A stretch of 64,000 bases of DNA from Bdellovibrionales bacterium. Its GTDB lineage: Bacteria > Bdellovibrionota > Bdellovibrionia > Bdellovibrionales > CAYMLA01. The stretch spans positions 1,632,001-1,696,000 of the forward strand of contig OZ244239.1 in the NCBI GenBank assembly GCA_965217115.1. The letters run 5' to 3'. The notes under the pieces were generated by a model. The model was not told the origin of the DNA. It saw only the letters and a list, made by a program, of their open reading frames with translations, and searched no databases. Position 1 is the first letter of the stretch, and each line of letters starts with the position of its first letter. The translations under genes and the position numbers were made by a program. Below, in pieces: positions 25,327 through 41,978 of the stretch.

Positions 25327-25337
25327 TTTTGGCAAGG

Positions 25338-25464
25338 GGCTGAGCTTTTTAAGCCGCCTTCTATTATTTATCTCAGACATGCGGTTGGCAGCAGTGCTCG
25401 CTCTGCGAGCACTGCACCAATCCGAACTCGATAAAGAATAGAAGGCGGCTTAAAAAGCTCAGCC
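25338..25464 (-). repeat. Long palindromic hairpin element, copy A
   Basis: Perfect 28-bp inverted repeat 25338-25365/25437-25464 enclosing TTTATC/GATAAA, the conserved core and an 11-bp inner hairpin (25391-25401/25405-25415). Confidence 0.9.
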
Positions 25465-25761
25465 TTGAAATCTTCACTTGGCTGGGAACAGCGGGGAGGG
25501 AGATAGAGGGACGGCTTAAAAGGCTCAGCCTTGAAATCTTCACTTGGCTGGGAACAGCGGGGAGGGAGATAGAGGGACGGCTTAAAAGGCTCAGCCTTGA
25601 AATCTTCACTTGGCTGGGAACAGCGGGGAGGGAGATAGAGGGACGGCTTAAAAAGCTCAGCCTTGAAATCTTCACTTGGCTGGGAACAGCGGGGAGGGAG
25701 ATAGAGGGACGGCTTAAAAGGCTCAGCCTTGAAATCTTCACTTGGCTGGGAACAGCGGGGA
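25446..25761. repeat. Tandem repeat, 66-bp unit, about 4.8 copies
   Basis: Units start at 25446, 25512, 25578, 25644, 25710; identical except one A/G position. Confidence 0.95.
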
Positions 25762-25819
25762 ACAGTGGGGATAATGGGGGGGGGCTTTGAAATCCACTGG
25801 CGGGGAACAGGGGGGGGTT

Positions 25820-26560
25820 ATGGGTGATAGTGGGGTGAAGAGGCAGGCGGTGGCGACGGTTTACTTGATTGTGTTTTTTTTGCTTCTTCCTATAATGGTG
25901 GTGTCATTTTATTTTGCTCATCTTGCTGATAACGAAGCGAGCGATTTTTCAAATTCTCCAAATTTTAGTTCATCGCCCCATCGTCATGGTGAGCGTTATA
26001 GGTTGAGGGGTGAGGTGGATTATACATCTGTAAAGTTTCCTGTGAAGTTTCTAAAAAACCTTCCATTGAAGCTTTCTGTGGAAAATGAAAAGATATATAA
26101 AATCAAAGATGCCATTTCTTATAAAGTAGTGAAGCAAGTGTTTAAAAATAATCAATGGCAGAGAGATTGTAGTTTTTCACAGGACTGTTTTCTGAAAAAA
26201 GTGAAAGAACTAAGAGTGATTGAAGGGCAAAAAGAAAAAGCGATTACAATTGTCGTTACGCCAGGGACAAAATTTCGTGTGTCTATTAATGAGATTTTTA
26301 GAAAAATAGATGAGAAAACTCGTTGGTGGATACGTTATAAGAGTCTTCCTAAAAAAATAGAGATTTGGGGAACCTACGAGCATGGTTATCTCTCCGATGG
26401 CTTACTTGACAGGCTCTATGTTTTTCCTCAAAAGGATTTGGACGAATTCAAACGCAGTCTGATTATCAAGGGAGCAAGAAAATCTCAGTGGCTTAATAGC
26501 ATAGGGGTGTTTTTGTTGTTTCTTATGTCGATGAGCTTATATTTTAGTTTGAAAAAATAA
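25820..26560 (+). CDS. Hypothetical membrane protein (N- and C-terminal TM helices)
   Basis: About 246-aa ORF with hydrophobic segments at both ends; start uncertain. Confidence 0.65.
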   Translation: MGDSGVKRQAVATVYLIVFFLLLPIMVVSFYFAHLADNEASDFSNSPNFSSSPHRHGERYRLRGEVDYTSVKFPVKFLKNLPLKLSVENEKIYKIKDAISYKVVKQVFKNNQWQRDCSFSQDCFLKKVKELRVIEGQKEKAITIVVTPGTKFRVSINEIFRKIDEKTRWWIRYKSLPKKIEIWGTYEHGYLSDGLLDRLYVFPQKDLDEFKRSLIIKGARKSQWLNSIGVFLLFLMSMSLYFSLKK

Positions 26561-26604
26561 AGGTCATCAAGTGGCGATAGTTTTAGGAACGAGGTTTTTT
26601 TTAT

Positions 26605-27969
26605 TTAGATCTTAACTTGAGGGTGAGGCGGGCGGAGGCCTTTCTTTTTTATTTTTTCAATCAAGGTTGTACGATTGAGTTTGAGTATGATGGCAGCTTG
26701 ATTGCGATTCCAGCCTGTTTTTTCCAAAGCAGATAGGATGAGAGCGTTCTCGTACTTGTCCACAGCAGAGTTAAAATCGAGACCTGAATCAGGAATGGAG
26801 AGATGTTTTTCTGTGGAAGTGATATTTTTTTGATACTTTTCTGGAAGATCTGAGACTTGAACCTCGCCGCTTCCCTTTAAAATAGCAAGGCGTTCTACTA
26901 AGTTCTCTAGTTCACGAATATTACCAGGCCACTTGTACTCGAAAAGAACTCTGAGAGCCCCATCAGAGAACCCTGTAAGTTCACTTGATTTCATCTGATT
27001 AAACTTCTTCATAAAATGATGGAGAAGTAATGGAATATCTGCTCCCCTCTCTCTGAGTGCAGGAGTCTTGATGGGAATAACATTGAGTCGATAATAGAGA
27101 TCTTCGCGAAAACGTCCTTCAGCGACGGCCTTTTCTAGATCAATGTTCGTTGCAGTAATAATGTGTACGTTGACTTGAATTGTTTTGGTACTTCCTACAG
27201 GTTCAAACTCTTGTTCTTGCAAAAATCTTAGAAGTTTTACTTGTAGGGCAGGAGACATATCACCGACTTCATCGAGAAAAATAGTTCCTTGATGGGCCAT
27301 TTCAAAACGTCCAAGGCGATTGGCAATGGCTCCAGTAAAGGCGCCTTTGATGTGGCCAAATAACTCGCTCTCCAGAAGTTCGTTGGGAATAGCTCCGCAG
27401 TTGACAGGGACGAAGGGTTTTCTAGCTCTAGGGGAGCTATAATGAATAGCTTTAGCGATAAGCTCCTTACCAGTGCCACTTTCTCCAGTGATGAGAGTGG
27501 TGGAGTTTGAAGTAGAAACGCGTTCGACGAGATTAAGGACTTTTTTAAGTTCAGGATGTTTTCCAATGATACTGTTGAATTGATATTCTTTACTGAACTT
27601 AAGCGATTCTTCTGAGGTACAGCTTGCAATGATCGATAGAAAAACCTCAGTATTGAAGGGCTTAGCGATGAAATGTGAAATTCCAGATTGAGAGGCAGCG
27701 ACGGCTAAGTTAATATTTTCTTGATTGCTCAGAGCAATGATCTGTGTTTGTGGGTTTTGTTTCTTAGTGTTTTTAATAAATTCAAGACTTTCAGGAATTT
27801 CGAGGTCAATGATAGCTAGATGAAAAAAAGGGCAGGAAGATTGTAAAGAGCGAGCTTCTTGCAGGCTAGAGACTGTTATAACTTGGTAGTTTTCTTTGCT
27901 TAGAATACGAGACAAAGACGAACGCACGCTGGATTGTTGATCAAGAATAAGAACTCTTTGAGAATTCAT
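26605..27969 (-). CDS. Sigma-54-dependent response regulator (receiver-AAA+-HTH, NtrC/FleQ-like)
   Basis: GESGTGKE, GAFTGA, FLDEVGD, WPGNIREL, C-terminal HTH; receiver-like N-terminus. Confidence 0.92.
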   Translation of the reverse strand: MNSQRVLILDQQSSVRSSLSRILSKENYQVITVSSLQEARSLQSSCPFFHLAIIDLEIPESLEFIKNTKKQNPQTQIIALSNQENINLAVAASQSGISHFIAKPFNTEVFLSIIASCTSEESLKFSKEYQFNSIIGKHPELKKVLNLVERVSTSNSTTLITGESGTGKELIAKAIHYSSPRARKPFVPVNCGAIPNELLESELFGHIKGAFTGAIANRLGRFEMAHQGTIFLDEVGDMSPALQVKLLRFLQEQEFEPVGSTKTIQVNVHIITATNIDLEKAVAEGRFREDLYYRLNVIPIKTPALRERGADIPLLLHHFMKKFNQMKSSELTGFSDGALRVLFEYKWPGNIRELENLVERLAILKGSGEVQVSDLPEKYQKNITSTEKHLSIPDSGLDFNSAVDKYENALILSALEKTGWNRNQAAIILKLNRTTLIEKIKKKGLRPPHPQVKI

Positions 27970-28205
27970 AAGTACGTTCCTTTATGAAAATTTCTCTCTA
28001 GTCTTTTAATGTATCCAAAGTGGTTTTTTGTGTCAAAAATCAATGTCAATTTTTTGGCTTTTGCTTGAAGAAACTAGACGAAAACGTAAAGGCATTTGTT
28101 GTTTTAGATCATAGTCCAGGAGGGGTTTTCTCGACGAAGGGCGAAAAATGAGAGTGATCTTCCCAGGGGTTTAACCTTGACCTTTTTTAATCAAAGGAGT
28201 ACTCA

Positions 28206-29594
28206 ATGCCTATGAAGAAAAGACGTTTATCCTCTATTGTTCTGGCTGCAGGTCAGGGAACCAGAATGAAGTCACAGATCCCAAAGGTTTTACATCCTGT
28301 TGCAGGTCGTCCTATGATATCCCATCTTCTTGGGCAGTTGAAAAAGAGCCAAGTTGATGAAATCCGATTAGTCGTTGGCCATGGTGCGGAGGCTTTGGAA
28401 AAAGTCGTTCTCTCCCAAGGAGTGATCTGCTTTAAGCAGAAGAGTCAGAGAGGAACAGCGGATGCTGTTAAATCGGCTGATTTAGAGACCTTGGAAGGAG
28501 ATGTTCTTATTGTTAACGGAGATCATCCTTTAATCACATCTGATGATGTCAAAGATTTTGTACAGAGTTTTCGTAGTGAAGGGGCTGATCTGGCTGTCGT
28601 GATGGTTCATCTAGATTCTCCAAGAGATTTTGGTCGTATTATACGTCAAGGAAACTTGGTGAGAGCAATTGTAGAAGCAAAGGATGCGTCTTCGGAGACG
28701 TTGAAAATCAAAGAAGTGAATACGGGTATTTATATTGTTAGGGCAGAGGTTTTGTCTGAATTAATCAATGGAGTTAAAAATCAAAATGCTCAATCTGAGT
28801 ATTATCTGACTGATCTCGTAGAATTGGCCAATGAACGTAATATGAATGTTATAGGTATCCAAGGTAAGAAGACTGTGGCGCGCGGAGTGAACAATCAATT
28901 GGATTTGGCTAAGGCCACTCGAGTGTTGTACCGGCGTAAGGCAAAGGAGCTTTTAGAGAGCGGAGTTATTCTTGTAGATCCATTGAATACTTATATTGAA
29001 TCAACAGTTAAAGTCGGGAGCACCACTGTTATTCAGCCTGGTGTTCATTTGCGAGGAAATACGAAAATTGGTGAAGCCTGTGTGATAGAACCAAATGTTT
29101 ATATTCAAGATAGTGAAATTAGCCATGGAGTGCATATTCGTGCGGGTTCTTATTTAGAGGGGGTATTCATAGATATGTCAGCAGTTGTTGGCCCCTATGC
29201 TCGCTTACGTCCAGGAACAAGTATTGGTGAGAATGCCCATGTGGGCAATTTTGTTGAAATGAAAAAAGTTTCTTTTGGCAAAGATTCGAAGGCAGGGCAT
29301 TTGACCTACCTTGGAGATGCTGAAATTGGCGAGGGTGTTAATATCGGTTGTGGAACAATCACATGCAACTATGCCCCTGATCGTAAAAAATATAGGACGA
29401 AGATTGGTGATGGAGCCTTCATTGGTAGTGACACGCAATTTATCGCTCCAGTAGAAGTCAAAAAAGGAGCGATCATTGCTTCAGGTTCGACAATCACTAA
29501 AGATGTACCTGAAGGCTCTTTGGCAGTCGCTCGTGGGCGGCAAAAAAACATTGAAAACTATGCTGATCGTTTAGGCGAGAAAAAGAAAGATTAG
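28206..29594 (+). CDS. glmU: Bifunctional UDP-GlcNAc pyrophosphorylase/glucosamine-1-P acetyltransferase
   Basis: LAAGQGTRMKS, EYYLTD, GNFVEMKK, HLTYLGDA, hexapeptide repeats. Confidence 0.97.
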   Translation: MPMKKRRLSSIVLAAGQGTRMKSQIPKVLHPVAGRPMISHLLGQLKKSQVDEIRLVVGHGAEALEKVVLSQGVICFKQKSQRGTADAVKSADLETLEGDVLIVNGDHPLITSDDVKDFVQSFRSEGADLAVVMVHLDSPRDFGRIIRQGNLVRAIVEAKDASSETLKIKEVNTGIYIVRAEVLSELINGVKNQNAQSEYYLTDLVELANERNMNVIGIQGKKTVARGVNNQLDLAKATRVLYRRKAKELLESGVILVDPLNTYIESTVKVGSTTVIQPGVHLRGNTKIGEACVIEPNVYIQDSEISHGVHIRAGSYLEGVFIDMSAVVGPYARLRPGTSIGENAHVGNFVEMKKVSFGKDSKAGHLTYLGDAEIGEGVNIGCGTITCNYAPDRKKYRTKIGDGAFIGSDTQFIAPVEVKKGAIIASGSTITKDVPEGSLAVARGRQKNIENYADRLGEKKKD

Positions 29595-29606
29595 AGGAAA
29601 AAAGCC

Positions 29607-31454
29607 ATGTGCGGTATAGTCGGATATATAGGTGCCCAGTCTCCTAAGAAAATAATTCTAGATGGATTAAAAAAATTAGAATATCGAGGCTATGACAGTG
29701 CTGGATTGGCAGTGTTTGATCACGGGAAATTAGTTAGGGTGAGGGCCGAGGGAAAACTTGTTCATCTGGAGAATAAGGTCAGTGATAGAGAGTTCTCTGG
29801 GAATCTAGGTATTGGACATACTCGCTGGGCGACCCATGGTGTTCCTTCGGAGAGAAACGCCCATCCCCATCAAGTAGATAAAGTTTGTATTGTTCATAAT
29901 GGCATTATAGAGAATTATAATTATATACGAGAAGAATTACAGTCACTCGGAGTGCAATTTCAATCAGAAACTGATTCCGAATTGGTGGCCCATCTTATTG
30001 CTCGGGAAATTAAAAAAGAAAAGGACATTTATAAATCTATTCGCAATATCATTCCGCAATTAGAGGGGGCTTTCTCTGTTCTAGCTATTTGGGAAGATGA
30101 ACCAAATAAAATGATTGCATTTAAAAATGGTCCTCCATTGATTGTGGGAAAGGGCGATAGGGAGTTCGTTATTGCCAGCGATGTACAGGCGATTATTTCT
30201 TACACCAAAGAGGTGATTTATTTAGAAGATCATGAAGTGGCGGTTATTGACAGTGAAGATTCATTAACTGTTTATTCGGCGAACGGTGTTGTTATTGAGA
30301 AGGAGTCATGTTTTTTAGATTGGAGTGCTGATCTAGTGGAAAACCAAGGTTATGCTCATTTCATGTTGAAGGAAATCTACGAGCAACCAAGGGCTTTTGC
30401 TTCTTCCTTAGAGCCTCATATTGATCTAAAAAGCATGAGTGTCCGTTTGCATCGAGATCAGGTTAAAGATGCCCAATTAACAGATCAACAATTATCAGAA
30501 GTGAAGAGGGTGTTGATCATAGCCTGCGGAACAAGTTTTTATGCGGGGATGTATGGTAAATATTTATTAGAAAAGTGGGCGCGTTTACCAGTAGAAGTCG
30601 ATATAGCCAGTGAGTTTCGTTATCGTGAACCGATTATTGAAAAACACACACTGGTTATCACCGTTTCACAAAGTGGGGAAACGGCGGATACTTTGGCTGT
30701 ATTAAGACAGGTTAAGAAGTTAGGAGCGAAGGTTCTAAGTATTTGCAACGTAGAGAATTCAACAATTGATCGAGAAGCCGATGGGCATCTTTATCTAAAC
30801 GCAGGCCCGGAGATTGGTGTGGCCTCAACAAAAGCTTTTATTAGTATGTTGGCAATTCTAAATGTGTTTTCTATCTTTATGGGACGTTTAAGAGATAATT
30901 TATCACTTGATGAAGAAAAACAAATTGTTAAAGATATTCTCTCGGTCCCTTCAAAAATGGAAGGCGTGTTGTCTTATGATAGTTTCTTTGCCGAGGCATC
31001 AAAAACTTTAAGAGAATTTCGAGGATTTCTCTATATGGGAAGAGGAGTCAATTTTCCTATTTCTATGGAGGGAGCCTTAAAGCTCAAAGAGCTGGCATAC
31101 ATGCATGCAGAAGGATATGCCGCTGGAGAAATGAAACACGGTCCTTTGGCATTGGTTGATGATCGTATGGCAGTGGTGATGACAGTTCCTGATGACGGTC
31201 TCTATGAAAAAACAATGAGTAATTTAGAGGAAGTCCGAGCGCGTGGGGGGCGGATCATAGCCATTGGCTCTGGAGAAAATAAAAGATTACAGGAGATCAG
31301 TGAACATTATCTGTCCCTACCCAAATCATCTTGGAATGTAAACCCTATTTTAGCAGTTATTCCTATGCAACTAATGGCCTATCACTTAGCAAATTCTCTA
31401 GGATTGGACGTAGACCAACCAAGAAATCTAGCAAAATCTGTCACAGTAGAATGA
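29607..31454 (+). CDS. glmS: Glutamine--fructose-6-phosphate aminotransferase
   Basis: MCGIVG, LEYRGYDSAG, GHTRWATHG, SQSGETADT, PRNLAKSVTVE. Confidence 0.98.
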   Translation: MCGIVGYIGAQSPKKIILDGLKKLEYRGYDSAGLAVFDHGKLVRVRAEGKLVHLENKVSDREFSGNLGIGHTRWATHGVPSERNAHPHQVDKVCIVHNGIIENYNYIREELQSLGVQFQSETDSELVAHLIAREIKKEKDIYKSIRNIIPQLEGAFSVLAIWEDEPNKMIAFKNGPPLIVGKGDREFVIASDVQAIISYTKEVIYLEDHEVAVIDSEDSLTVYSANGVVIEKESCFLDWSADLVENQGYAHFMLKEIYEQPRAFASSLEPHIDLKSMSVRLHRDQVKDAQLTDQQLSEVKRVLIIACGTSFYAGMYGKYLLEKWARLPVEVDIASEFRYREPIIEKHTLVITVSQSGETADTLAVLRQVKKLGAKVLSICNVENSTIDREADGHLYLNAGPEIGVASTKAFISMLAILNVFSIFMGRLRDNLSLDEEKQIVKDILSVPSKMEGVLSYDSFFAEASKTLREFRGFLYMGRGVNFPISMEGALKLKELAYMHAEGYAAGEMKHGPLALVDDRMAVVMTVPDDGLYEKTMSNLEEVRARGGRIIAIGSGENKRLQEISEHYLSLPKSSWNVNPILAVIPMQLMAYHLANSLGLDVDQPRNLAKSVTVE

Positions 31455-31760
31455 GAAGAAGGTTATTTTTCTATAAAGTGCAGGAATTCATCATAGAAAA
31501 CATCTATGAAAATTAAACAAATTACAGCGCGTACAAGTTTTGCACACAACCCCCCATTAAACTAAAAATAGACCTAGAAAAAGAATTAAAGATTTTTTTA
31601 TACACTGCTCAATAGGGGTAGAAGGATGTCTACTTAAATAATTTTAAGGTGTTAGGTCTTGGTGTGGTTTACATGAAACATAAACTAATAAAACATACAT
31701 GTTATTAATTTTAGAAATTTAGTTTTTCATACCCACTTAATAGATTTTTAAAAGGAGAGC

Positions 31761-31803
31761 TTAAAGCAAAAAGGACTATTTTAAATAGTCCTTTTTGCTT
31801 TAA
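31761..31803. terminator. 21-bp perfect inverted repeat, likely bidirectional terminator
   Basis: TTAAAGCAAAAAGGACTATTT-T-AAATAGTCCTTTTTGCTTTAA between convergent glmS and 31870-32262. Confidence 0.7.
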
Positions 31804-31869
31804 TGAAATTTTATTGTCTTTGTGTGTAAAGCTTAGTTACAAACCTAGTGTTTTAGATGTAAGTAGATC

Positions 31870-32262
31870 TCATCTACAAAGGTTTTTCATCATACGAGCA
31901 AAGGTCCTTAGCGCAGAGTCTATATCATCAGTTCCTTTCTTATAAAGACTCAAATGAGGGACCCATATATTAGAAAGACTTGAGCCTAATATTTCTGTTT
32001 CTTCAAGAATAATACCACCTTTAATTGGCAAAGAGGGGGCAACAAGTTTGATTGATTTAACTAATTCTTTAGTTTGACGTCTCTTAGTTCCCCAAACAGC
32101 ACTAGCATGTTCTAAGTTGTTGTAGTAGTGCTCATTCGTCCCATAAGCAGTCATACTTTCTGCAGCTATGGAAAGCCCCTTTGCAATACCACATTCCGAC
32201 TCTGTATTTGCAAAAGAAGTCGAAACTATTAAACTAGCAAAAACAACTATCAATGATCTCAT
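31870..32262 (-). CDS. Hypothetical secreted protein
   Basis: SD AGGAGG; signal peptide ending SFA; no known motif. Confidence 0.7.
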   Translation of the reverse strand: MRSLIVVFASLIVSTSFANTESECGIAKGLSIAAESMTAYGTNEHYYNNLEHASAVWGTKRRQTKELVKSIKLVAPSLPIKGGIILEETEILGSSLSNIWVPHLSLYKKGTDDIDSALRTFARMMKNLCR

Positions 32263-32382
32263 GATTCCTCCTGATTACTCATCTGAGTAATGGTTTAATT
32301 ACAAGCCTTGCAAATTACAGCGCGTACAAGTTTCGCACACACTGCAAGAAATTTATAGCAAAGAAAACTTCAATATTACGAG

Positions 32383-32793
32383 TTACTTAAATTGTTCGCC
32401 AAGAGAACAAACACCTGTTCTAGTCTCTTTTTTAGAAGTAATAACCCCAGTGCTGTTTTTAATATGCATAGTGATTAAGTTATTATCACTATCTTTAAAA
32501 CTAAAATGTAACAAATTTTTCTGGTTCTCTATAATTGTGGAGTTTACCTCTATTGCAATGCCTGCTTTTGAAAGAGCCATAATCGTCTTAACAGGAGCAC
32601 TAGAGTCGCCAAGAGTGACTGTTGCAACCCAATCTTTCAAGTTCAAGTATGCTGTAAAGTCAAATTTAGCATCAGCATCAGAAAACTCACATGAAACAGC
32701 CTTAAAAGAAACGTTGGATGAAACTTTCAACTCAGAATTTGCGCTTGCATGAATAGAGACTCCCAACAAAAGGGATAATAATATTTTTTTCAT
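32383..32793 (-). CDS. Hypothetical secreted protein (start reassigned to MKKILL)
   Basis: SD AAGGAG; signal peptide ending ASA; two Cys; beta-rich appearance. Confidence 0.7.
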   Translation of the reverse strand: MKKILLSLLLGVSIHASANSELKVSSNVSFKAVSCEFSDADAKFDFTAYLNLKDWVATVTLGDSSAPVKTIMALSKAGIAIEVNSTIIENQKNLLHFSFKDSDNNLITMHIKNSTGVITSKKETRTGVCSLGEQFK

Positions 32794-33000
32794 AAGATTC
32801 TCCTTATTTATGACCCTTTGTAACAAGGGTTTAAGTTTTATTAGAGCTTGTGCTCATAATTCAGTTTGCTTAACAGGAGGTTTAGACAAAGAAGAAGAGA
32901 CAAGCAAGCAAAAACTTAACTAAGCGCAATAGCCTAAGATGTCTACCTGAGCCACCTTGTGAGCGTGCTGTCCATGAGCAACAACGCACAGCACCAGCTC

Positions 33001-33150
33001 TCCCCCCCCCCTTTTTTTTTCCGTTGTCCCCCTTCCCGTTGTTCCCCTTCCCGTTGTTCCCCTTCTCGTTGTTCCCCTCTCGTTGTTCCCCTCTCGTTCT
33101 TCCCCCCACCCTCCGTTGTTCTCCCCCTCCCTCCCTCCCCGTTGTTCCCA
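33001..33150. repeat. C10-T9 homopolymer plus degenerate pyrimidine-rich repeat (CGTTGTTCCCC core, about 14-15-nt period)
   Basis: About 8 imperfect copies directly visible; G-rich GGGGAACAACG on the minus strand. Confidence 0.85.
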
Positions 33151-33174
33151 GTCAAGCGCAGGTTTCTAAAGTGA

Positions 33175-33290
33175 GTTTTTTAAGTGGGCTTTTGTTTTCA
33201 GATGAGTTCGGCTTGGTGCTCTGCTCGCTGAAGCGAGCGGTGCAGCCAAACGCATGTCTGAATCTGAAAATAGAAGCCCACTTAAAAAAC
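33175..33290 (+). repeat. Long palindromic hairpin element, copy B
   Basis: 29-bp stem 33175-33203/33262-33290 (two G-T pairs) around GAGTTCGGCTTGG...CCAAACGCATGTCTGA; homologous to the reverse complement of copy A. Confidence 0.9.
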
Positions 33291-33393
33291 GGCACCATTC
33301 GCCCAAACCCAGCAAAAATTGGTTAAAAGTTAAACAAAACCCCAACCTTTACCAAAATAATTCAGAAATTCGCATAGTTTTCTCGACCTGTCT

Positions 33394-33420: not shown

Positions 33421-33458
33421 GTGTTTGTGAGATAAATTTTCTAGGGAGTGACTAAGCA

Positions 33459-34055: not shown

Positions 34056-34072
34056 ATTAGGGTGGTCGTTTT

Positions 34073-35038
34073 ATGATTTGGATAAGAATATTCTGGTTAT
34101 CAATTTTGTCCCTAATGATGTCTTGTGGGAACAAGAAGTTTGATATTAAATCGCAAACAAGGGCCTTCAAAGGTTATGTGGAAGTCAATAACAAAGTTGA
34201 TATTTTGTGGGTTCTTGATAATTCATCTTCGATGGAGAGGCATCAAGAGCTTTTGAGTCAGCAGGTAGATTTCTTTATGAAGTCTATTCTAAAAGGTAAT
34301 TATGATTTTCATATTGGCGTGATCCATACGGATATGACTCCGAGTAAAGGGCCTGGAGTTTTATTGGGAAATCCTTCGGTGCTGACGTCGTCGACCTCTG
34401 ATGTTCAGAGTCTCTTGCAGGAAAAATTCCAGGTGGGAGATACTGGAACTAACTTTGAGCAGGGGTTGGCAGCAATGGAGGCAGCTTTGTCCCCGGATTA
34501 TTTACAGGGAGTTAATCAGGGTTTTCTCCGTCAAGAGGCTTCCTTGGTGGTGATATTTCTTAGTGATGAAGATGACCATAGTTCTGAAGAAGTGACTCAT
34601 TACATTCAAATTTTGAATCAATTAAAAGGAGCGTCTGCGAAGAAAAGTAGAGGTTGGGATGTCCATTTTATTGGTGTTCTAGAGGATAGTTTGTCTTGTA
34701 CCACGATGAATGACTACTCCGAAGTGGGTCAACGTTACATGGAGATGGTGAACGAATCTGGAGGAGCTAAAGAATCTATCTGTGCGGCGGATTTTTCAAC
34801 AGCTTTGTCCAGAATTCAATCAAGAATAGTGAGTGTACTTACGGATTTTCCTTTGGATAGAAGGCCTATTATTGAGTCTATTCAAGTTTGGACAAATGAT
34901 GTTAAAGTGCCTCAAAACTCAGAGAACGGTTGGGTTTATTTAGCAGATAAAAATGCAGTGTCTTTTCGAGGGTCGTTCATTCCTAAAAATGGGGCAAAAA
35001 TTCGCGTGGATTTTACTCCAGTGAGTGTTTTTGAGTGA
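34073..35038 (+). CDS. vWA-like domain lipoprotein
   Basis: Lipobox MMSC; VDILWVLDNSSSM (MIDAS DxSxS); FLSDEDD. Confidence 0.75.
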   Translation: MIWIRIFWLSILSLMMSCGNKKFDIKSQTRAFKGYVEVNNKVDILWVLDNSSSMERHQELLSQQVDFFMKSILKGNYDFHIGVIHTDMTPSKGPGVLLGNPSVLTSSTSDVQSLLQEKFQVGDTGTNFEQGLAAMEAALSPDYLQGVNQGFLRQEASLVVIFLSDEDDHSSEEVTHYIQILNQLKGASAKKSRGWDVHFIGVLEDSLSCTTMNDYSEVGQRYMEMVNESGGAKESICAADFSTALSRIQSRIVSVLTDFPLDRRPIIESIQVWTNDVKVPQNSENGWVYLADKNAVSFRGSFIPKNGAKIRVDFTPVSVFE

Positions 35039-35371
35039 TTTTTCTTGTAGGTAATACGCCCTAACTATTCTTTTTAAGATGTTTTTTTCTTTCTTCTTCG
35101 GCGTTTTCTACGCTTGTTTTTCTTACAGGTAATATTAATAAAACCTTAAAAATTCACGATCGTACAAGTATGTGACCTCTTAGGGTTATCTGTCAAGTGT
35201 GAGAAGAAGCTGTGAAAGTGGGTTGGCCAATATTAGGGGATGGATGGTGTGGGTCCACTGATTTTTCTTGCAGAGGCTCGGAATTTAACGGGAATTCAGT
35301 GACAGAGGGAAAGCGGTTTGGTAGGGTTTGGTGGCATTTGCAAGTGAGAGTCGTGTAGAGGAGATAAGGGT

Positions 35372-35971
35372 ATGCCAGAAAACCCTTCTGGAGTGGATAT
35401 GGGCGTGGGAGCTGGGGGTGTTTTGCCTGGTTCTCAGATGAGTTCGCGTATAGCTGGTGATCAGACGGTTCAAGATGAATCCCGTGCTTTTGCTATGACC
35501 ACCCGTTTAGATAAGCTTGTGGCGTGGGGTCGTAGAAATTCTTTATGGCCTTTGCCCTATGGAACGGCCTGTTGTGGTATTGAGTTGATGTCAGTGATGG
35601 GGCCTCGTTATGATTTAGCTCGTTTTGGAGCTGAGGTGGTTCGTTTTTCGCCCCGTCAAGCAGACTTGATGCTAGTGGCTGGAACGATTACAGAAAAAAT
35701 GGCCCCTGTCCTTTTGCGTATTTATCAACAAATGTTGGAACCAAAGTATGTTTTGTCGATGGGGGCCTGTGCGAGTTCTGGTGGATTTTATCGTGCTTAT
35801 CATGTGGTTCAAGGGATTGATCGTATCATTCCTGTGGATGTTTATGTTCCCGGGTGTCCTCCGACTCCAGAAGCTGTTTTGGATGGAGTGATGGTTTTGC
35901 AAAAAATGATCACAGACGGGACTCCGCGACCATGGAAAGAGAATTGGAAAGAGAATTGGAAAGATAATTAA
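35372..35971 (+). CDS. nuoB: NADH-quinone oxidoreductase subunit B
   Basis: [33 protein letters not shown]. Confidence 0.96.
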
Positions 35972-35986
35972 GAGATGTTGGTTTAA

Positions 35987-37672
35987 ATGAATGTAAAAAT
36001 AGAAAAGATAAAAAAAGAATTAGAGGTTAAAAACCTTGTTTTAAAGTCAGAGTTTACAACAGTTTTCAATGATGAAGTGCTGACTCTGGATAAAGAAGAA
36101 ATTGTTGCTGTGTTATCGCATCTTAAAAAAGAAAGTCATTATGATTTCTTGATGGATATCTGTGGTGTGGATTACCCAAAAAGAGAAAAACGTTTTGAAG
36201 TGGTTTACCATTTATACTCATCTAAGGACGCTCAACGTTTGCGTATAAAATTAAAAGTAGCAGAGGGTGAGAGTGTGAAAACGGCAACCACTGTTTGGAA
36301 AGGGGCGGATTGGTTTGAGCGAGAGACCTATGAAATGTTTGGAATTAATTTTAGTGGGCATCGGAATTTACGTCGTCTATTAACTCATCACCAATTTGAG
36401 GGATATCCACTTCGTAAGGATTACGATGCCGATCGACAACAGCATTGCTATGAATCTCTGCCGGTGCATTTTAATATTGATGATGAGCACGACTCGATTG
36501 AACCGAGTGACAACATGGTTCCCATTAATATTGGCCCTTCCCATCCAGCGACCCATGGAACGTTGCGTGTAATGGCTGAATTAGATGGGGAGACGATTGT
36601 AAGAGCGAATCCTGAAATAGGTTATCTCCACCGTTGTTTTGAAAAAATGGCAGAAACTCACACTTACAATCAAGTGATTCCCTACACTGATCGCTTGAAT
36701 TACTGTTCGGCAGCGTCTAACAATATTGGTTATTGCAAGACTGTGGAGAGAATATTGGAAGTTGAAATTCCTGCCAGAGCACAGACAATGAGAGTGATTT
36801 TAGCTGAACTATCCCGAGTGATTGATCACATTATAGCTGTTGGAACAGGAGCTGTGGACTTAGGAGCCTTATCGGGGTTCTTTTATTTATTTACTTTTAG
36901 GGAAAAGGTTTACACTCTTTTTGAAAAACTTTGTGGAGCACGCTTGACAGTGGCTTTGACTCGAGTGGGTGGAATGACTCAGGATGCACCAGAGGGATGG
37001 TTTGATGATGTCCTGGGTTTTTGTAAAGAGATGAGAACTGAGTTAGATCAAATGGAGTCTTTGCTAATAGACAATAAAATTTTTATTAAGAGAACTCGTG
37101 ATGTTGGTAACATAACACAAGAGAATGCGATTGAGTGGGGTTATACGGGGCCTTTATTGAGATCGACAGGAGTGAGTCAAGATTTACGTAAATCCCAGCC
37201 TTACTATGGTTATGATCAGTATGATTTCGATGTTCCTATTGGAAGCACGGGTGATCTTTACGATCGTTATTTAGTGCGCGTTGAGGAAATGCGTCAGTCT
37301 TTGCATATTATTGAGCAAGCTTCTCGTAATATTCCTGGTGGGGATTACACGATCAGGGATAAGAATATCGTGTTACCTGAAAAAAAAGATGTCTATGGAA
37401 ACATCGAGGGTTTAATGAATCATTTTATGTTGGTGATCAATGGCTTGCGGCCTCCTGCAGGAGAACTTTACGATGCGACCGAGGCTCCTAATGGTGAGTT
37501 GGGTTTTTATTTAGTGAGCGATGAGAGTGGGAACCCCTATCGTTTGAAAGTTCGCCCCCCTTGTTTTGCCATTTATCAGTCTTTTTCAGAAGTGGCAAAG
37601 GGTGGGTTGATAGCTGATGCAATAGCAACGATAGCAACGATGAATTTAATTGCGGGTGAGTTGGATCGCTAG
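35987..37672 (+). CDS. nuoCD: NADH-quinone oxidoreductase fused subunit C/D
   Basis: WFERETYEMFG and YPLRKD (C), then GPSHPATHGTLR, GYLHR, GELDR (D). Confidence 0.95.
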   Translation: MNVKIEKIKKELEVKNLVLKSEFTTVFNDEVLTLDKEEIVAVLSHLKKESHYDFLMDICGVDYPKREKRFEVVYHLYSSKDAQRLRIKLKVAEGESVKTATTVWKGADWFERETYEMFGINFSGHRNLRRLLTHHQFEGYPLRKDYDADRQQHCYESLPVHFNIDDEHDSIEPSDNMVPINIGPSHPATHGTLRVMAELDGETIVRANPEIGYLHRCFEKMAETHTYNQVIPYTDRLNYCSAASNNIGYCKTVERILEVEIPARAQTMRVILAELSRVIDHIIAVGTGAVDLGALSGFFYLFTFREKVYTLFEKLCGARLTVALTRVGGMTQDAPEGWFDDVLGFCKEMRTELDQMESLLIDNKIFIKRTRDVGNITQENAIEWGYTGPLLRSTGVSQDLRKSQPYYGYDQYDFDVPIGSTGDLYDRYLVRVEEMRQSLHIIEQASRNIPGGDYTIRDKNIVLPEKKDVYGNIEGLMNHFMLVINGLRPPAGELYDATEAPNGELGFYLVSDESGNPYRLKVRPPCFAIYQSFSEVAKGGLIADAIATIATMNLIAGELDR

Positions 37673-37692
37673 AGAAAATAAAAAGGGTTAAT

Positions 37693-38166
37693 ATGTTTAA
37701 GTTATCAGATGAAGGTTTGAGTTTTGTAAAAAAGGAATTGGGCAGATATGAGGAATCAGAGTCGGCAATCATCCCATGCCTTTTTATGGCTCAGAAAGAA
37801 AATGGTGGGCACATATCCGACGAGGTGATTGACTGCCTAAGTGAGGTAATGAAGCTACCGACATCTAAGATTAATGAGGTTTTTAAATTCTATACGATGT
37901 TTAATCAGAAACCTGTTGGGAAACACCATGTGCAGGTGTGCAATAATATTTCCTGCGCTTTAAACGGTGGGCGTGAATTGACAGATTATATCTGTAAAGA
38001 ATTGGGAACGAGCGTTGATCAGGTGACAGAGGATAATCAATTTAGTGTGTCGCGTGTGGAGTGCTTGGGATCTTGTGGAACGGCTCCTATGATGCAGGTT
38101 AACGATAGTTATTATGAGGGATTGGATAATAATTCAGCGATGAAAATTTTGCGGGAGTTGAATTAA
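37693..38166 (+). CDS. nuoE: NADH-quinone oxidoreductase subunit E
   Basis: FYTMF, CNNISC, ECLGSC 2Fe-2S ligands. Confidence 0.95.
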   Translation: MFKLSDEGLSFVKKELGRYEESESAIIPCLFMAQKENGGHISDEVIDCLSEVMKLPTSKINEVFKFYTMFNQKPVGKHHVQVCNNISCALNGGRELTDYICKELGTSVDQVTEDNQFSVSRVECLGSCGTAPMMQVNDSYYEGLDNNSAMKILRELN

Positions 38167-39467
38167 TGGAATTAAAACTGCTTACAGAATTTTATCATCT
38201 TGATGAATTCAGAACTTTAGATGGCTACAGGAAAAATGGTGGATATGCTGTTTTAAAAAAAGCACTAAAAATGAAGCCGAATGATATTAAAGACGAGGTA
38301 AAAGCTTCGGGTTTGCGTGGTCGTGGAGGAGCTGGATTTCCTACGGGAGTTAAGTGGGGTTTTTTACCAGACAATAGTGAACCTCGTTATTTACTTTGCA
38401 ATGCAGACGAAGGTGAACCTGGAACTTTTAAAGATCGCGAGATGATGGAGCGTGCGCCCCATCAGTTGATAGAGGGAATGATTATTTCAGCCTATGGGGT
38501 TGGGGCTAATAAGGCTTATATATATATTCGTGGAGAGTATAATTATCCCTATTCTGTGTTGAGAGAAGCACTGGATGAAGCTTATAAAGCGGGTTGTTTG
38601 GGTAGGGATATTTTGGGATCTGGTTTTGACTTAGAGATGGATTTATACTCTGGGGCGGGAGCTTATATTTGTGGAGAGGAGACGGGAATGATTTCTTCTC
38701 TTGAGGGTAAAAAAGGACAACCTAAATTGAAACCGCCCTTTCCTGCGATTCAGGGATATTTGCGTAAGCCAACTATTGTGAATAACGTTGAAACACTGGC
38801 TGCAGTGATTCCTATTATTCGTGATGGAGCGGAGGCTTATAAAAAAATTGGTACAGAGAAGTCGACGGGGACAAAATTATTTTCCATCAGTGGTAATGTG
38901 ATGAAACCAGGAAATTATGAAGTCCCTTTAGGGGTTCCGTTAAAAGATTTTATCAATCAGTTAGCTGGGGGAGTGCCCCCAGGGCGTAAATTGAAAGCGG
39001 TGATTCCGGGAGGTTCGTCAGCTCCTGTATTGACGACTGAAGAGGTGGAAGTTGCCTGTTTAGATTATGAATCTTTATCTGGTCTTGGCAGTATGTTGGG
39101 ATCAGGAGCGATCATTGTTATAGATGATTCTAATTGTATGGTGGATTTATTAAGTGTGTTGTCACATTTTTATCAACATGAGTCTTGTGGTCAATGCACC
39201 CCTTGTCGTGAGGGTACGGGTTGGTTATATAAGATAGTTAACAGTATTTTAGCGGGAGAGGGGAGACTTCAGGATATAGAACTCTTGGAGAAAGTAGCCA
39301 ATGAGATGAAGGGTAAAACAATCTGTGCTTTATCAGATGCGGCGGCATTACCAGTGTTGAGCTTTATTGAAAAATTCCGTGATGAATTTGAATTTTTTGT
39401 GCGCGAAGGGCGTTCAAAGGTGAAGGGAAATATTTATCGTGCACCAGAAGGAGCGGTTCATGCTTAA
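38166..39467 (+). CDS. nuoF: NADH-quinone oxidoreductase subunit F
   Basis: GRGGAGFPTG, NADEGEPG, YICGEET, CGQCTPCREG. Confidence 0.97.
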   Translation: MELKLLTEFYHLDEFRTLDGYRKNGGYAVLKKALKMKPNDIKDEVKASGLRGRGGAGFPTGVKWGFLPDNSEPRYLLCNADEGEPGTFKDREMMERAPHQLIEGMIISAYGVGANKAYIYIRGEYNYPYSVLREALDEAYKAGCLGRDILGSGFDLEMDLYSGAGAYICGEETGMISSLEGKKGQPKLKPPFPAIQGYLRKPTIVNNVETLAAVIPIIRDGAEAYKKIGTEKSTGTKLFSISGNVMKPGNYEVPLGVPLKDFINQLAGGVPPGRKLKAVIPGGSSAPVLTTEEVEVACLDYESLSGLGSMLGSGAIIVIDDSNCMVDLLSVLSHFYQHESCGQCTPCREGTGWLYKIVNSILAGEGRLQDIELLEKVANEMKGKTICALSDAAALPVLSFIEKFRDEFEFFVREGRSKVKGNIYRAPEGAVHA

Positions 39468-41043
39468 ATGTACAGTCAACGGAAAAGAGATTGAAGTCGA
39501 AAAGGGCACGACTGTTATAGAGGCTTTTAAGAAAGGTGAACAGGATATAGCCCATTACTGTTGGCATCCAGGTCTTAGTGTAGCAGGAGCGTGTCGTCTC
39601 TGTATGGTTGAAATAGAAGGCAACCCTCGGTTGCAGATTTCTTGTAATACAACTGTGCAAGATGGAATGGTCGTCAGTAACCAAACTGAAAAAGTGAAAG
39701 AGGCTGTTCGTTGGGGTTTGGATTTTCATTTGATTAATCATCCGTTGGATTGTCCTATTTGCGATCAGGCAGGAGAGTGCGAGCTTCAGGAGCAGTACAT
39801 GAAGTTTGGACAGTATGATTCTTCCATGGCAGAGAATAAGGTTAAGAAACAAAAAGTAGTGAGTTTAGGTGAGAGAGTTGTTTTAGATTCAGAGAGATGT
39901 GTTCTTTGCTCCCGTTGTGTGCGTTTTACGGATGAGGTGACAGAGACCCATGAGTTGGGAATTTTTAACCGAGGAAATCGTAGTGAGTTAGGAACATTTA
40001 AAAATCGTCCGCTCGATAATAAGTACTCTTTGAACACGGTGGATATTTGTCCTGTGGGGGCGTTGACCTCTAAGGATTTTCGCTTTGAGCAAAGGGTGTG
40101 GCTTTTAAAAGAGACGGAAACCACCTGCCCAGGTTGTTCTACGGGGTGTAGGGTGAAGGTTTATCATAATAATTCGGGTGTTTATCGTATTAAACCAGTT
40201 TATGATAAAGAGGTTAATGGGTATTGGATGTGTGATGAAGGGCGTGATATTTATAAATCAGTAAATAAAGAACAGCGTCTGGGGTATGGTAAAAAACACA
40301 ATGGACTCTCTTGGGATTTGATGTCTCCAGGTGAAGCGGTTAAATCGGCGGCCTGTGATCTTCAGGGAATAGATAAGAAGTCGGTCGCTTTAGTATTGAC
40401 GGGCCAATTTAGCAATGAGGAGTATGAAAAAGCCATTGTTGAATTTAAGGGGAGTTATAATTCAGAAAATATTCACCATTGGCAGAATGAAGAAGAGATG
40501 GCAGATGATTTTGATGGGTTATTGATTCGTGGTGATAAAAACCCAAATACTCGTGGTTTAAAAGAGGCTTTAAATAAAAATTCTATTGAGGCTGTGCAGT
40601 TGAATCAGCTAGAAGAGAAAATAAATTCTGGTGTTATCAAAGCTGTCATTGTGGCTTCTCCTGAGAATTTGTTAGGGTATAGTGATTTTAGTAACAAGGT
40701 GAATTTATTTTCTAAGGTAGAGAAGATCGTGTGGTTAACAGCGGTGAAGAGTAAAGAGCTGGACTCTTTGATAGGTGATGTTTATCAGATACCATTGAAG
40801 ACCTTTGTTGAAAAATCGGGAACAACGATAAACTATGCAGGATTAGAGAGGAAACGACAGAAGGCGATGATTATTATATCTACGGCATTCACTTTAGATC
40901 AGGCGTTAACTTTGTTGGTTGGAAAAAACATTGTTCCTGAAACTGTAACTGGTGTGGGGGATAAGACGTCAGAAGTGACCGATCATGTAACTAACCAAAT
41001 GCGTGTGACAAATGAATTTGTTCACAGAAGAGGTTCTTTATGA
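39460..41043 (+). CDS. nuoG: NADH-quinone oxidoreductase subunit G (short form)
   Basis: CWHP...GACRLC, HPLDCPICDQAGEC, CVLCSRC, CPGCSTGC. Confidence 0.9.
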   Translation: MLKCTVNGKEIEVEKGTTVIEAFKKGEQDIAHYCWHPGLSVAGACRLCMVEIEGNPRLQISCNTTVQDGMVVSNQTEKVKEAVRWGLDFHLINHPLDCPICDQAGECELQEQYMKFGQYDSSMAENKVKKQKVVSLGERVVLDSERCVLCSRCVRFTDEVTETHELGIFNRGNRSELGTFKNRPLDNKYSLNTVDICPVGALTSKDFRFEQRVWLLKETETTCPGCSTGCRVKVYHNNSGVYRIKPVYDKEVNGYWMCDEGRDIYKSVNKEQRLGYGKKHNGLSWDLMSPGEAVKSAACDLQGIDKKSVALVLTGQFSNEEYEKAIVEFKGSYNSENIHHWQNEEEMADDFDGLLIRGDKNPNTRGLKEALNKNSIEAVQLNQLEEKINSGVIKAVIVASPENLLGYSDFSNKVNLFSKVEKIVWLTAVKSKELDSLIGDVYQIPLKTFVEKSGTTINYAGLERKRQKAMIIISTAFTLDQALTLLVGKNIVPETVTGVGDKTSEVTDHVTNQMRVTNEFVHRRGSL

Positions 41044-41564
41044 GTATAGTTAAAAAGCCTTCTGGTGCGTCTAAGTGGTATGTTTTTAGCATTTTTATTG
41101 GTTTATCTATTACGATAAGGAAAATGTTTCACAACCTTTTTAATCAGAGTAAAATGCCGACGTTGAATTACCCTGAAAAAAAATATGAATATGGTCCCCG
41201 TTTTAAAGGCAATCATGTTTTGACGGTGAAGAAAGACGGATCTTTACGTTGCACAGCTTGTATGTTGTGTGCGACAGCTTGTCCAGCGGACTGCATTGAT
41301 ATTCAGGCGGCAGAGCATGATGATTTCGCAGTGGAAAAATTTCCTGTGAAGTACAACATTGATATTCTCCGTTGTGTTTTTTGCGGCTATTGTGAAGAGG
41401 CCTGTCCAGTCGACGCGATTCGCATGGGGCCTGAATGGCAAACTCCAGGGCTAAATGGTCGTTCTTTTGTTAATGATATTCAAGAGTTGGCTTATCGCCC
41501 TGCCTTGAGAGGTGGAGTGTTGAGTGTGGTGGATGAACAAGAGCGTCACGATTTTGGTATTTAA
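41040..41564 (+). CDS. nuoI: NADH-quinone oxidoreductase subunit I
   Basis: CTACMLCATACP and CVFCGYCEEACP. Confidence 0.93.
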   Translation: MSIVKKPSGASKWYVFSIFIGLSITIRKMFHNLFNQSKMPTLNYPEKKYEYGPRFKGNHVLTVKKDGSLRCTACMLCATACPADCIDIQAAEHDDFAVEKFPVKYNIDILRCVFCGYCEEACPVDAIRMGPEWQTPGLNGRSFVNDIQELAYRPALRGGVLSVVDEQERHDFGI

Positions 41565-41677
41565 ACAAATATTTTAAAAAATATGCTAAAAAAATAATTA
41601 AATTTCTGTATGGTTTTTTGTGATAAATAGTGGAACTGTTCCCAAGAGATCCATTGACCCATTGATTGAATACGGCC

Positions 41678-41829
41678 TTTTTTTCTAGAGTCTCTCCCAA
41701 AAGAATCCAGTTCTTTTCGGCGAGTTTGGCTTGGCGACTTCCATTGCATTTCTCTGCAATGGGAGGTGACAAACGGATGTTTGAGCAAGAAAAGGGCTGG
41801 ATTCTTTTGGGAGAGACTCTAGAAAAAAA
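41678..41829 (+). repeat. Long palindromic hairpin element, copy C1
   Basis: 41-bp stem 41678-41718/41789-41829 (two G-T pairs) around GAGTTTGGCTTGG...CAAACGGATGTTTGA. Confidence 0.9.
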
Positions 41830-41870
41830 CGGATCATCAGAGAAAAACTGGCTCCACTATTGTTTGTCAT

Positions 41871-41978
41871 AAAGAATCCAGTTCTTTTCGGCGAGTTTGG
41901 CTTGGCGACTTCCATTGCATTTCTCTGCAATGGAAGGTGACAAACGACTGTTTGAGCAAGAAAAGGGCTGGATTCTTT
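41871..41978 (+). repeat. Hairpin element copy C2 (part of a ~171-bp tandem duplication)
   Basis: 41871-42042 repeats 41700-41870 with several substitutions. Confidence 0.88.

Follow-up and report, generated by a model that had tools for sequence, protein, structure and literature searches.

A large family of palindromic repeats with a conserved internal-loop core and free outer arms in the Bdellovibrionales

Results

The four copies in the window and the extent of the family

Four long hairpin elements, here called copies A, B, C1 and C2, lie at three loci in the stretch of DNA analysed in this work, a window of 64,000 nucleotides from a Bdellovibrionales bacterium (contig OZ244239.1, positions 1,632,001 to 1,696,000) whose genome is complete, with 2,170,531 bp and 39.6% G+C. 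They follow a common plan, outer stem / GAGTT-YGG-M-TTGG / inner hairpin / CAA-M-CG-nn-TGTYTGA / outer stem, and are members of a large family of palindromic repeats that is found only in Bdellovibrio-like bacteria (Bdellovibrionales). An initial annotation of the window had described these four copies and their shared architecture; their places and strands (Table 1) are borne out by the letters and by a scan with the core pattern AGTTYGGNTTGG-N25-55-AMCGNNTGTYTGA, which matches four times, precisely at A, B, C1 and C2, while 0 of 100 dinucleotide-preserving shuffles of the window produced any match. The covariance model R1, which derives from 42 copies found in 16 genomes and was used with hits taken at E<=0.001, returns the same four sense-strand hits (scores in Table 1) and one weak opposite-strand echo of copy A.

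Sampled genomes carry G-numbers, G000 being the window's own. Here the exact core pattern occurs 88 times (42 forward, 46 reverse) and the reversed pattern, used as a control, not once. A looser scan finds 101 paired cores, nhmmer adds 23 hits outside them, mostly half units, and model R1 gives 123 hits, 19 of them weak opposite-strand echoes of strong hits, which leaves 104. The further copies for which the initial annotation had suggested building such a model therefore exist, at about 104 full ones in this genome besides some 20 partial ones, a density of about 1 copy per 21 kb. They form 23 clusters, 21 of which are of the A/B type, named after copies A and B; C1 and C2 represent the C type.

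Approximately 450 genomes in total could be searched in two samples, one of 301 genomes of the order and one of 151 genomes of the phylum (127 from other orders). The exact pattern is present in 16/301 genomes of the order, in five families besides the window's own, with no match for the reversed control, and the more sensitive model R1 adds G007 (21 hits), G065 (11) and G021 (3). Other carriers have from 1 to about 21 copies, copy number ranges overall from 0 to about 104 between genomes, and the positions of the elements differ from genome to genome. In the phylum sample, 5/151 genomes were hit (G000 included), all of Bdellovibrionales, and model R1 had no hit among the 127 genomes from other orders. 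The conservation of structure and loop that had been proposed from four copies holds, then, across at least five families of one order. Among single genomes of 185,579 species, 35 stretches contain the pattern: 20 of them, in metagenome-assembled genomes labelled Bdellovibrionales, Bdellovibrionaceae, Pseudobdellovibrionaceae or Bdellovibrionia, have the arms and the inner hairpin, and the 15 from other phyla are without arms or inner hairpin and come to approximately the number expected by chance in a rough calculation. Metagenome contigs gave 39 stretches, of which 15 are real (13 with arms and two armless true cores) and 24 are chance matches. Phage and plasmid records contained no match, and the 15 pattern matches in viral contigs are all without the hairpin architecture, 14 of them sharing one near-identical stretch.

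No named family could be assigned from the letters of the window, and Rfam, searched over the whole of it, agrees, with 0 matches at gathering score. At E<=1, the region 25000-42300 has matches only to four plant-microRNA precursor models, at 43, 42.8, 33 and 22.8 bits against cut-offs of 84, 65, 52 and 180, which are non-specific because such models match any long hairpin. The portions of the literature on Bdellovibrio and Bdellovibrionales repeats, miniature inverted-repeat transposable elements (MITEs), attC sites and hairpins that were available to us hold no description of the family. Four of the listed sequencing runs contain this DNA, all from one sample, and no RNA run is among them.

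Structure of the core and the favoured strand

The conserved part of the element is a two-stranded internal loop, GAGTTCGG(M) / (A)ACGnATGTYTGA, whose letters are invariant or nearly so in the 42 aligned copies. From the outer stem P1 inwards, the core consists of a G-A, the stretch GUUCG:CGnAU (its middle U facing the variable n), a G-M facing A, the helix UUGG:CCAA and the closing hairpin, and its outward strand reads GUYUGA before P1. The core is asymmetric and measures about 35-90 nt, in a whole unit of 115-215 nt; its closing hairpin varies from 5-6 bp with a short loop, in mini-variants of G005 that keep the internal loops, up to about 30 bp with an inserted extra hairpin.

Covariation was judged by pair counts against shuffled and slid-partner controls. 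In an alignment fitted to the model, which includes eight echo rows, 13/15 inner pairs change on both sides, 90.9% of cells pair compared with 57.1% after shuffling (0/500 shuffles as high), and the covariation score is 0.754, compared with 0.09-0.17 with slid partners. An independent MAFFT alignment has 87.6% of cells paired against 62.4% shuffled, and a covariation of 0.627 against 0.09-0.25 with slid partners. The genuine covariation sits in the inner hairpin and in the TTGG:CCAA helix, which as RNA changes from UUGG:CCAA to UCGG:CCGA and UGGG:CCCA, and the combination of invariant loops with covarying inner helices makes the core a genuine structure-constrained motif.

Next to the outer stem, GA on the 5' strand faces GA on the 3' strand in 42/42 copies, as had been observed for the copies of the window, with the first G present in 90% or more. 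A kink-turn is formed by a canonical stem, a 3-nt bulge and tandem sheared G.A pairs that open a non-canonical stem; read in that way, the bulged strand of the present core would have 4 nt (GUYU) instead of 3, and the flanking pair would be G.U.

The two strands of the element are not equivalent, and the strand favoured in the initial annotation for its G-T imperfections, visible in copies B and C, is also the one favoured genome-wide. Model scores are about 115-124 bits on the GAGTT strand and about 31-44 bits for the echoes on the opposite strand, and unique non-Watson-Crick events in the arms of the window's own genome comprise 48 G.T/T.G against 14 A.C/C.A (binomial p=1.7e-5). For the A/B type alone there are 35 G.T and 8 A.C events, 22 of the 35 G.T events lying 9-11 bp from the core, and the strand bias is for the most part a single conserved irregularity at roughly one helical turn's distance from the core. 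Given the homology among the A/B arms of this genome, inheritance may account for a share of the bias; the same G.T feature is present in G148 and missing from most other relatives.

The outer arms

Arm lengths range from 3 to about 115 bp. In the window, on an alignment anchored at the core, Watson-Crick pairs occupy 34/35 positions of the outer stem of copy A (with a single C.T mismatch), 27/29 of copy B (the other two being G.T, at positions 9 and 11 from the core), 41/45 of C1 and 19/23 of C2. The A/B-type arms of the genome as a whole have 28-29 bp and are homologous between loci, having diverged into about 21 clusters. In relatives, the arms of the copies of one genome share only about 7 bp by the core (typically AAAAGC...GCTTTT) and are unrelated beyond; many of them pair perfectly.

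Some arms contain the end of a neighbouring gene. In G219, the arm beside a tRNA-Glu gene runs into the gene and the far arm contains the final ~21 nt of the tRNA in inverted form; since a tRNA end cannot derive from the repeat, the far arm would be a copy made from the near one. Arms of G005 take in the last codons of serS, which recur in a diverged, inverted form in the opposite arm. Perfect stems of 60-115 bp composed of neighbour-gene sequence point to copying at the DNA level (fold-back synthesis, template switching or conversion) and not to RNA selection. The compensatory changes between copies A and B, by which CCGCC:GGCGG becomes TGGGC:GCCCA and TTTATC:GATAAA becomes TCAGAT:ATCTGA, had been put forward as a sign of selection on the folded single strand. 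The swaps can be read in the sequence as described; as evidence for RNA selection they are weak, given that arms are locus-specific, extend to about 115 bp and contain tRNA and gene ends, and changes of this kind suggest instead palindrome copying at the DNA level. Behind atpE, G005 also has a four-unit array (G005:C1:983006-983417) in which two units are nearly armless (3-14 bp), so that the core can exist almost naked.

The C-type carrier and the gene arrays

In the window's own genome the C type comprises 38 near-identical copies and 2 truncated ones, all with the arms of C1. These copies are contained in composite elements that have 25-bp terminal inverted repeats (TIRs) and no transposase or coding capacity inside, and 6/7 complete C-type elements, the window copy included, are flanked by 8-bp target duplications. 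The carrier of C1 and C2 is a classical TIR-MITE, and the hairpin core is an internal passenger module that was amplified with it to about 40 copies. The truncated arm of C2 is joined to a MITE-end-like sequence (..TTTGTCATAAAGAATC) through the microhomology AAAGAATC, and the C1/C2 dimer junction recurs once, at genome position 1377197/1377368. A transposase for this MITE was looked for in the same genome, which has no ISL3 match and a single rve gene that is not flanked by these TIRs. Two 535-aa genes (G000:C1:13123-14730 and 1589952-1591562) each lie downstream of a C-type MITE, separated from it by the same ~317 nt of sequence; they had been considered as a transposase and were discarded, their product being a protease-like protein with a proprotein-convertase P-domain, and the pair suggests a segmental duplication that included the MITE.

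Units also occur in arrays. The genome contains at least 8 arrays in which hairpin units alternate with genes in the same orientation, including those at positions 427k, 474k, 527k, 913k, 1814k and 1908k and none in the window. The enclosed genes are mostly orphans, together with leucine-rich repeat, ankyrin and FG-GAP proteins, a ClpP-like protease, a RES-Xre toxin-antitoxin pair, and LysR and methyltransferase genes; the genes within one array are often paralogues, and every array ends against a housekeeping gene (kpsF-like, hldA-like, cobalamin adenosyltransferase, sigma-54 activator and others). There are also gene-less tandem arrays with periods of 169-273 bp, and many units are solitary. 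The arrays probably arose mainly from unequal crossing-over between direct repeats, site-specific capture being a less likely source.

One orphan family of about 177 aa has 8 paralogues in G000:C1 (428148, 429457, 753490, 788216, 1560500, 1561225, 1563508 and 1566841), with 52-74% identity to the query; four of them cluster around the genome's only rve-type integrase gene (1562304-1562603), four of the 8 have no hairpin anywhere near them, and the matches in other genomes of the order are limited to weak ones in 3/150. Directly against another hairpin unit, a gene on the minus strand (G000:C1:534193-535359) encodes a protein of 388 aa that combines a topoisomerase VI-A/Spo11 N-terminal domain with a Toprim domain, which is uncommon in bacteria.

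Position relative to genes

Elements are usually found in oriented contact with the 3' ends of genes. With genes called by a longest open reading frame (ORF) heuristic and arrays grouped into single loci, at 19 of 24 A/B loci of the window's genome, the gene on the 3' side is on the opposite strand with its 3' end facing the hairpin, at a distance of 30 nt or less in 16 of those 19, and on the 5' side the next gene is 100-1,350 nt away. Thirteen of these 24 loci lie between convergent genes and 2 between divergent ones. The stop codon of the gene is inside the conserved 3' flank at several loci (..TTTGCCAAAA followed directly by TCA), copy A among them. For the C type, the 3'-side gene is on the opposite strand in 23/33. 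The same arrangement is seen in 8/9 loci of G005 (atpE, a phosphoglucomutase-family gene, gcvH, SpoVR, serS, purA and others) and in 9 of the 12 assessable loci of metagenome contigs, and the 3' ends of tRNA genes occupy the 3' side of the element for Ala (G236), Glu (G219) and Leu (G274). In a crude scan of 47 copies from relatives (one echo row excluded), ORFs of at least 190 aa that end between -45 and +27 nt of the model boundary number 13 on the 3' side and 5 on the 5' side. Replication direction does not account for this placement: with the origin of replication near 1.27 Mb and the terminus near 0.18 Mb, the A/B loci show no bias in replication direction (11 against 13) and the C-type loci are distributed 23 against 10 (p=0.035).

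Further flanking features belong to the A/B units of this genome. A 5' box (..CCCCGYTGTTCCCAG) and a spacer ending ATTTCAAAG, which pairs with the 3' flank CTTTG(CC)AAAAT, accompany the units, and reiterated 12-14-nt C-rich units that end in the same 5' box are found upstream in most of the 21 A/B cluster representatives. The left boundary is blurred by these reiterated units, which leaves the A/B type without a scorable target duplication. In half units, the break falls in the inner hairpin or the left arm, and the retained 5' portion runs straight into the C-rich leader of the next unit. As general features of the family the 5' box and the C-rich tract were rejected: the box GTTGTTCCCAAG occurs in 4/48 upstream regions of relatives against 1-3 in controls, which makes it lineage-specific at best, and the relatives have 24% C and 19% G upstream over 50 rows.

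Setting of the copies in the window

The features of the window that belong to the four copies are collected in Table 1. The ABC-ATPase gene whose stop codon abuts the flank of copy A occupies 24346-25326, and a spurious ORF of 122 aa (25373-25741, minus strand) crosses the tandem partial units before that copy. Copy B is the exception to the rule of an opposite-strand gene 3' end, since it has two minus-strand orphan ORFs on one side and a plus-strand PilZ gene on the other. It lies downstream of glmS (29607-31454), and the ORFs of 130 and 147 aa between glmS and copy B (31870-32826, minus strand), which have no Pfam family, occupy the position where Tn7-like elements insert in other bacteria and may constitute a small island. 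The tract upstream of copy B includes a minisatellite (33010-33150, plus strand) that is C-rich and G-poor, with units of about 14 nt ending GTTGTTCCC, and whose complement is rich in G, with stretches of at least three consecutive G.

Table 1. Hairpin copies of the window and the features attached to them (positions in the window)
Feature	Position	Strand	Description
3' flank of copy A	25327..25337	-	..CCCTTGCCAAAA; abuts the stop codon of the opposite-strand ABC-ATPase gene, whose TGA reads TCA directly after the conserved flank
Copy A	25338..25464	-	Complete A/B-type hairpin unit; core 25373-25429; model hit 25343-25459 (-), 115.5 bits
Tandem partial units	25465..25760	-	About 4.5 copies of 62 nt, before copy A on its own strand; each with the 5' flank, the first ~14 nt of the left arm and a C-rich linker ending GCTGTTCC
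C-rich tract	33010..33174	+	Reiterated ~14-nt units (CCCTTCCCGTTGTT type), then box CCCCGTTGTTCCCAG and spacer before copy B
Copy B	33175..33290	+	Complete A/B-type hairpin unit; core 33204-33261; model hit 33174-33291, 117.3 bits
8-bp target duplication	41604-41611 and 42051-42058		TTCTGTAT; flanks the TIR-MITE
Composite TIR-MITE	41612..42050	+	439 bp, carrying C1 and C2; terminal inverted repeats GGTT(C/T)TTTGTGATAAATAGTGGAAC / ...ATTTATCACAAAGAACC
Copy C1	41678..41829	+	C-type hairpin module; core 41722-41784; model hit 41692-41815, 73.0 bits
Copy C2	41871..41978	+	C-type module, left arm truncated; model hit 41863-41986, 53.3 bits

Search for a partner enzyme

The initial annotation had seen no cognate enzyme in the window, and none was found in it by our searches. 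The one tyrosine recombinase gene there, XerC-like (47040-48017, minus strand; 325 aa), scores 222.7 bits with the XerC model, below the equivalog cut-off, and is taken as the housekeeping partner of the XerD-like gene at ~605k. In the genome as a whole, the only candidates present are XerC/XerD-like genes, an integrase of 367 aa, a retron-type reverse transcriptase (RT) and an rve gene, the last three in a single copy each. Three tyrosine recombinases reach 120.7, 93.6 and 46.2 bits on the integron-integrase subfamily model, compared with a cut-off of 265, and are best assigned as XerC/XerD-like. PF01797 (Y1_Tnp) had 0 matches at E<=0.001 in this genome, with positive controls that fired in 6/14 genomes; the TnpB zinc-ribbon model gave only a match at E=0.064, below the cut-off, and a weak IS91-Y2 hit lies in a PutA gene.

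None of the remaining candidates could be retained. The 367-aa integrase has matches in 163/301 genomes and none at E<=1e-30 in the carriers G005 and G011, and therefore does not track the element; RVT_1 is present in all five element-carrying relatives tested and is hence uninformative; and Y1_Tnp-like genes, present in five carriers, are not adjacent to the copies in G005 and were not found in the window's own genome. Matches of this last kind (IS200/RAYT-type, RAYT standing for REP-associated tyrosine transposase and REP for repetitive extragenic palindrome) number 17 in G005:C1, scattered in ORFs of ~170-220 aa (e.g., 1215194-1215544), and 7 in G011, and may belong to a separate REP/RAYT-like system. 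For the Xer/dif system, a search for dif-like sequences returned only three candidates with 8 mismatches, unlike the stems. A group II intron has no support in Rfam, which gave no group-II hit, and the only RT of the genome is the retron-type one. Two non-enzymatic roles were also set aside, a CsrA-type GGA site, whose G is not conserved at the variable loop positions (judged from the letters, with no dedicated test), and a DNA-uptake signal, for which the element is too sparse, other genomes having 1-21 copies each and this one about one in every 21 kb (judged from counts, with no dedicated test).

Discussion

We consider the family to be, with a probability of about one in two, a variant of the REP/ERIC/Correia class, i.e., selfish, recombination-prone DNA whose core is a candidate recognition site for a protein. 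Its patchy distribution, the range of its copy numbers, its differing positions, the truncated and nested copies, the arms made of local sequence and the capture of one version by a MITE all argue for DNA of this kind. According to the mechanism that we propose, the core would fold in single-stranded nucleic acid in vivo, on the GAGTT...TGTYTGA strand, its loop would serve as the recognition site of a putative trans-acting protein, and the element would spread, or persist, as selfish DNA beside the 3' ends of genes. The complementarity of the long outer arms would arise and be maintained in the DNA itself, with one arm serving as template for the other through fold-back, template switching or conversion inside the palindrome. 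Such arm-to-arm copying would explain arms that are different at each locus and nevertheless almost perfectly paired, and that may take in the end of a neighbouring gene. Direct repeats of the unit would then drive tandem duplication and give rise to partial units and to arrays enclosing accessory genes. In the window's genome one version, that of C1 and C2, was captured in the TIR-MITE and amplified with it.

Several observations weigh against this interpretation. The window's genome has no match to Y1 (IS200/RAYT), IS110, IS91-Y2, TnpB or ISL3 and no multicopy transposase-like family, and no recombinase or nuclease recurs beside the copies in the arrays, in G005 or at the metagenome loci. 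A mechanism that works on the lagging-strand template gains no support from the A/B loci, which show no replication-strand bias. No filled and empty pair of sites was obtained, the downstream flank of tRNA-Glu differing in every relative and the homologues of the ABC-ATPase anchor being too distant, at 52-60% identity, so that insertion itself is presumed for the A/B type. Finally, the G.T bias of the sense strand, the GA/GA loop and the bracket of A-run and T-run around copies of relatives (in 14 of the 20 aligned, TTT follows the core within 7 nt and an A-run precedes it, an arrangement reminiscent of a bidirectional intrinsic terminator) would fit a role at the RNA level equally well.

It is possible, and we mention it tentatively as the main alternative, that the hairpin is a cis-acting RNA element of 3' untranslated regions, either a terminator (perhaps a bidirectional one), an insulator or a 3'-end stabiliser, with a loop, possibly kink-turn-like, that binds an RNA-binding protein or an RNase, the spread as a repeat being secondary. 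Units stand directly after stop codons and tRNA 3' ends, convergent settings prevail over divergent ones among the A/B loci, the units of arrays share the orientation of the enclosed genes, and in the window's genome the hairpin is preceded on its sense strand by a C-rich, G-poor tract that we take to resemble a Rho loading site. The gene that abuts a unit would, however, transcribe the opposite strand, which is without the GA/GA motif and where the G.T pairs become A.C mismatches; 19/22 aligned copies of that genome have no T-run after the core, and relatives do not show the C-rich tract. RNA selection is not expected to yield perfect arms of 60-115 bp copied from gene ends, the invariant letters of the loop are not needed by simple terminators, and a presence in 16/301 genomes with 0 to ~104 copies would be odd for a host function.

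An integron-like system of gene capture, in which the hairpin would be the folded single-strand recombination site (an analogue of attC) on which an unrecognised recombinase acts to place gene cassettes behind housekeeping genes, at their 3' ends, is unlikely in our view. The arrays do alternate units with accessory and orphan genes in one orientation and end against housekeeping genes, their repeat boundaries are sharp (..GYTGTTCCCAG on the left, ..CTTTG on the right), and what is conserved is the structure rather than the sequence of the arms. Nonetheless, the three tyrosine recombinases are far below integron-integrase cut-offs, the distribution of the sole non-Xer integrase does not follow that of the element, paralogous cassettes are what unequal crossing-over would leave by tandem duplication, many units stand alone or in gene-less tandem arrays, and the 177-aa cassette family also occurs away from any hairpin. 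A conserved centre with free arms is, moreover, the reverse of attC, and the outermost stem bases are GTT...AAC and not, as in attC, AAC...GTT. A bolder version, in which the loop would be the docking and cleavage site of a hairpin-specific recombinase or nuclease that inserts the element precisely at gene and tRNA 3' termini, forms the arms by inverted copying of the target and assembles the cassette arrays, seems doubtful to us. A stand-alone structured noncoding RNA gene or self-cleaving ribozyme in many copies, an option raised in the initial annotation, would suit the conserved asymmetric internal loop, the covarying closing hairpin, the strand-specific model score and the lack of protein-coding potential, but is very improbable in view of the absence of an Rfam family at gathering score and of a conserved promoter-like box in relatives, of copy numbers from 0 to about 104, of arms that consist of neighbouring gene sequence, and of truncated and nested copies, some of them inside a MITE.

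Under the interpretation as selfish palindromic DNA, the closest relatives in kind are ERIC (IRU) and Correia (CREE/NEMIS) elements, intergenic repeats of about 100-155 bp with an imperfect palindrome, from Enterobacteria and Vibrio and from Neisseria, respectively. The likeness extends to the size class (about 115-215 bp here), the long hairpin palindrome, the intergenic position, often at gene 3' ends, a group-wide distribution with very uneven copy numbers, the absence of an encoded enzyme and plausible side effects on transcripts; the difference is that their terminal inverted repeats are conserved and accompanied by short target duplications, whereas here the centre is conserved and the arms (3-115 bp) are free and may copy a gene end. 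REP, a short palindromic unit of 20-40 nt with a conserved 5' tetranucleotide, and the bacterial interspersed mosaic elements (BIMEs) share with the present family the extragenic palindromes, a built-in asymmetry that gives orientation, and mosaic arrays at gene 3' ends, and they are probably processed in the form of folded single strands by the RAYT, an enzyme resident in the host in one copy. The unit described here is three to six times their size and contains an internal loop of two strands, and the window's genome has no Y1_Tnp match.

The attC sites of integrons, and their clusters lacking an integron integrase (CALIN), are likewise structure-defined hairpins with imperfections on one strand, in the same orientation and alternating with promoterless-looking accessory genes that include toxin-antitoxin pairs. 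An attC site has conserved R''/L''...L'/R' boxes at the stem ends and a variable centre; compared by eye, the present element has an invariant centre, free arms and no integron integrase, and it forms many small arrays and solitary copies all over the chromosome, with cassettes that are often paralogous. The likeness to TIR-MITEs concerns the C-type carrier only, through its 25-bp TIRs, 8-bp target duplications, about 40 near-identical copies and lack of an internal transposase, and differs in that the hairpin core is internal and does not form the MITE ends, the matching transposase not having been found in the same genome. What is new relative to REP, ERIC and Correia elements is the combination of a kept centre and free arms, the tight, oriented contact with gene and tRNA 3' ends and the lack of a recognisable partner enzyme.

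The covariance model lets annotators mask or flag these elements, which are otherwise a source of spurious ORFs and microRNA-like hits. The genomes of predatory Bdellovibrio-like bacteria are small and gene-dense, with few recognisable mobile elements, and in the one studied here a single structured repeat occupies about 100 intergenic sites and marks where accessory genes accumulate. Its conserved centre with free arms reverses the usual logic of bacterial palindromic repeats and offers a clean case for two questions, how long palindromes are built up out of the sequence beside them and what host factor recognises a conserved internal loop. A dedicated enzyme, should there be one, would make the family a new route of gene capture, and, were the hairpin-specific recombinase or nuclease considered above real, an integron-like platform that shares no parts with integrons; a loop that is read as RNA would amount to a new 3'-end motif.

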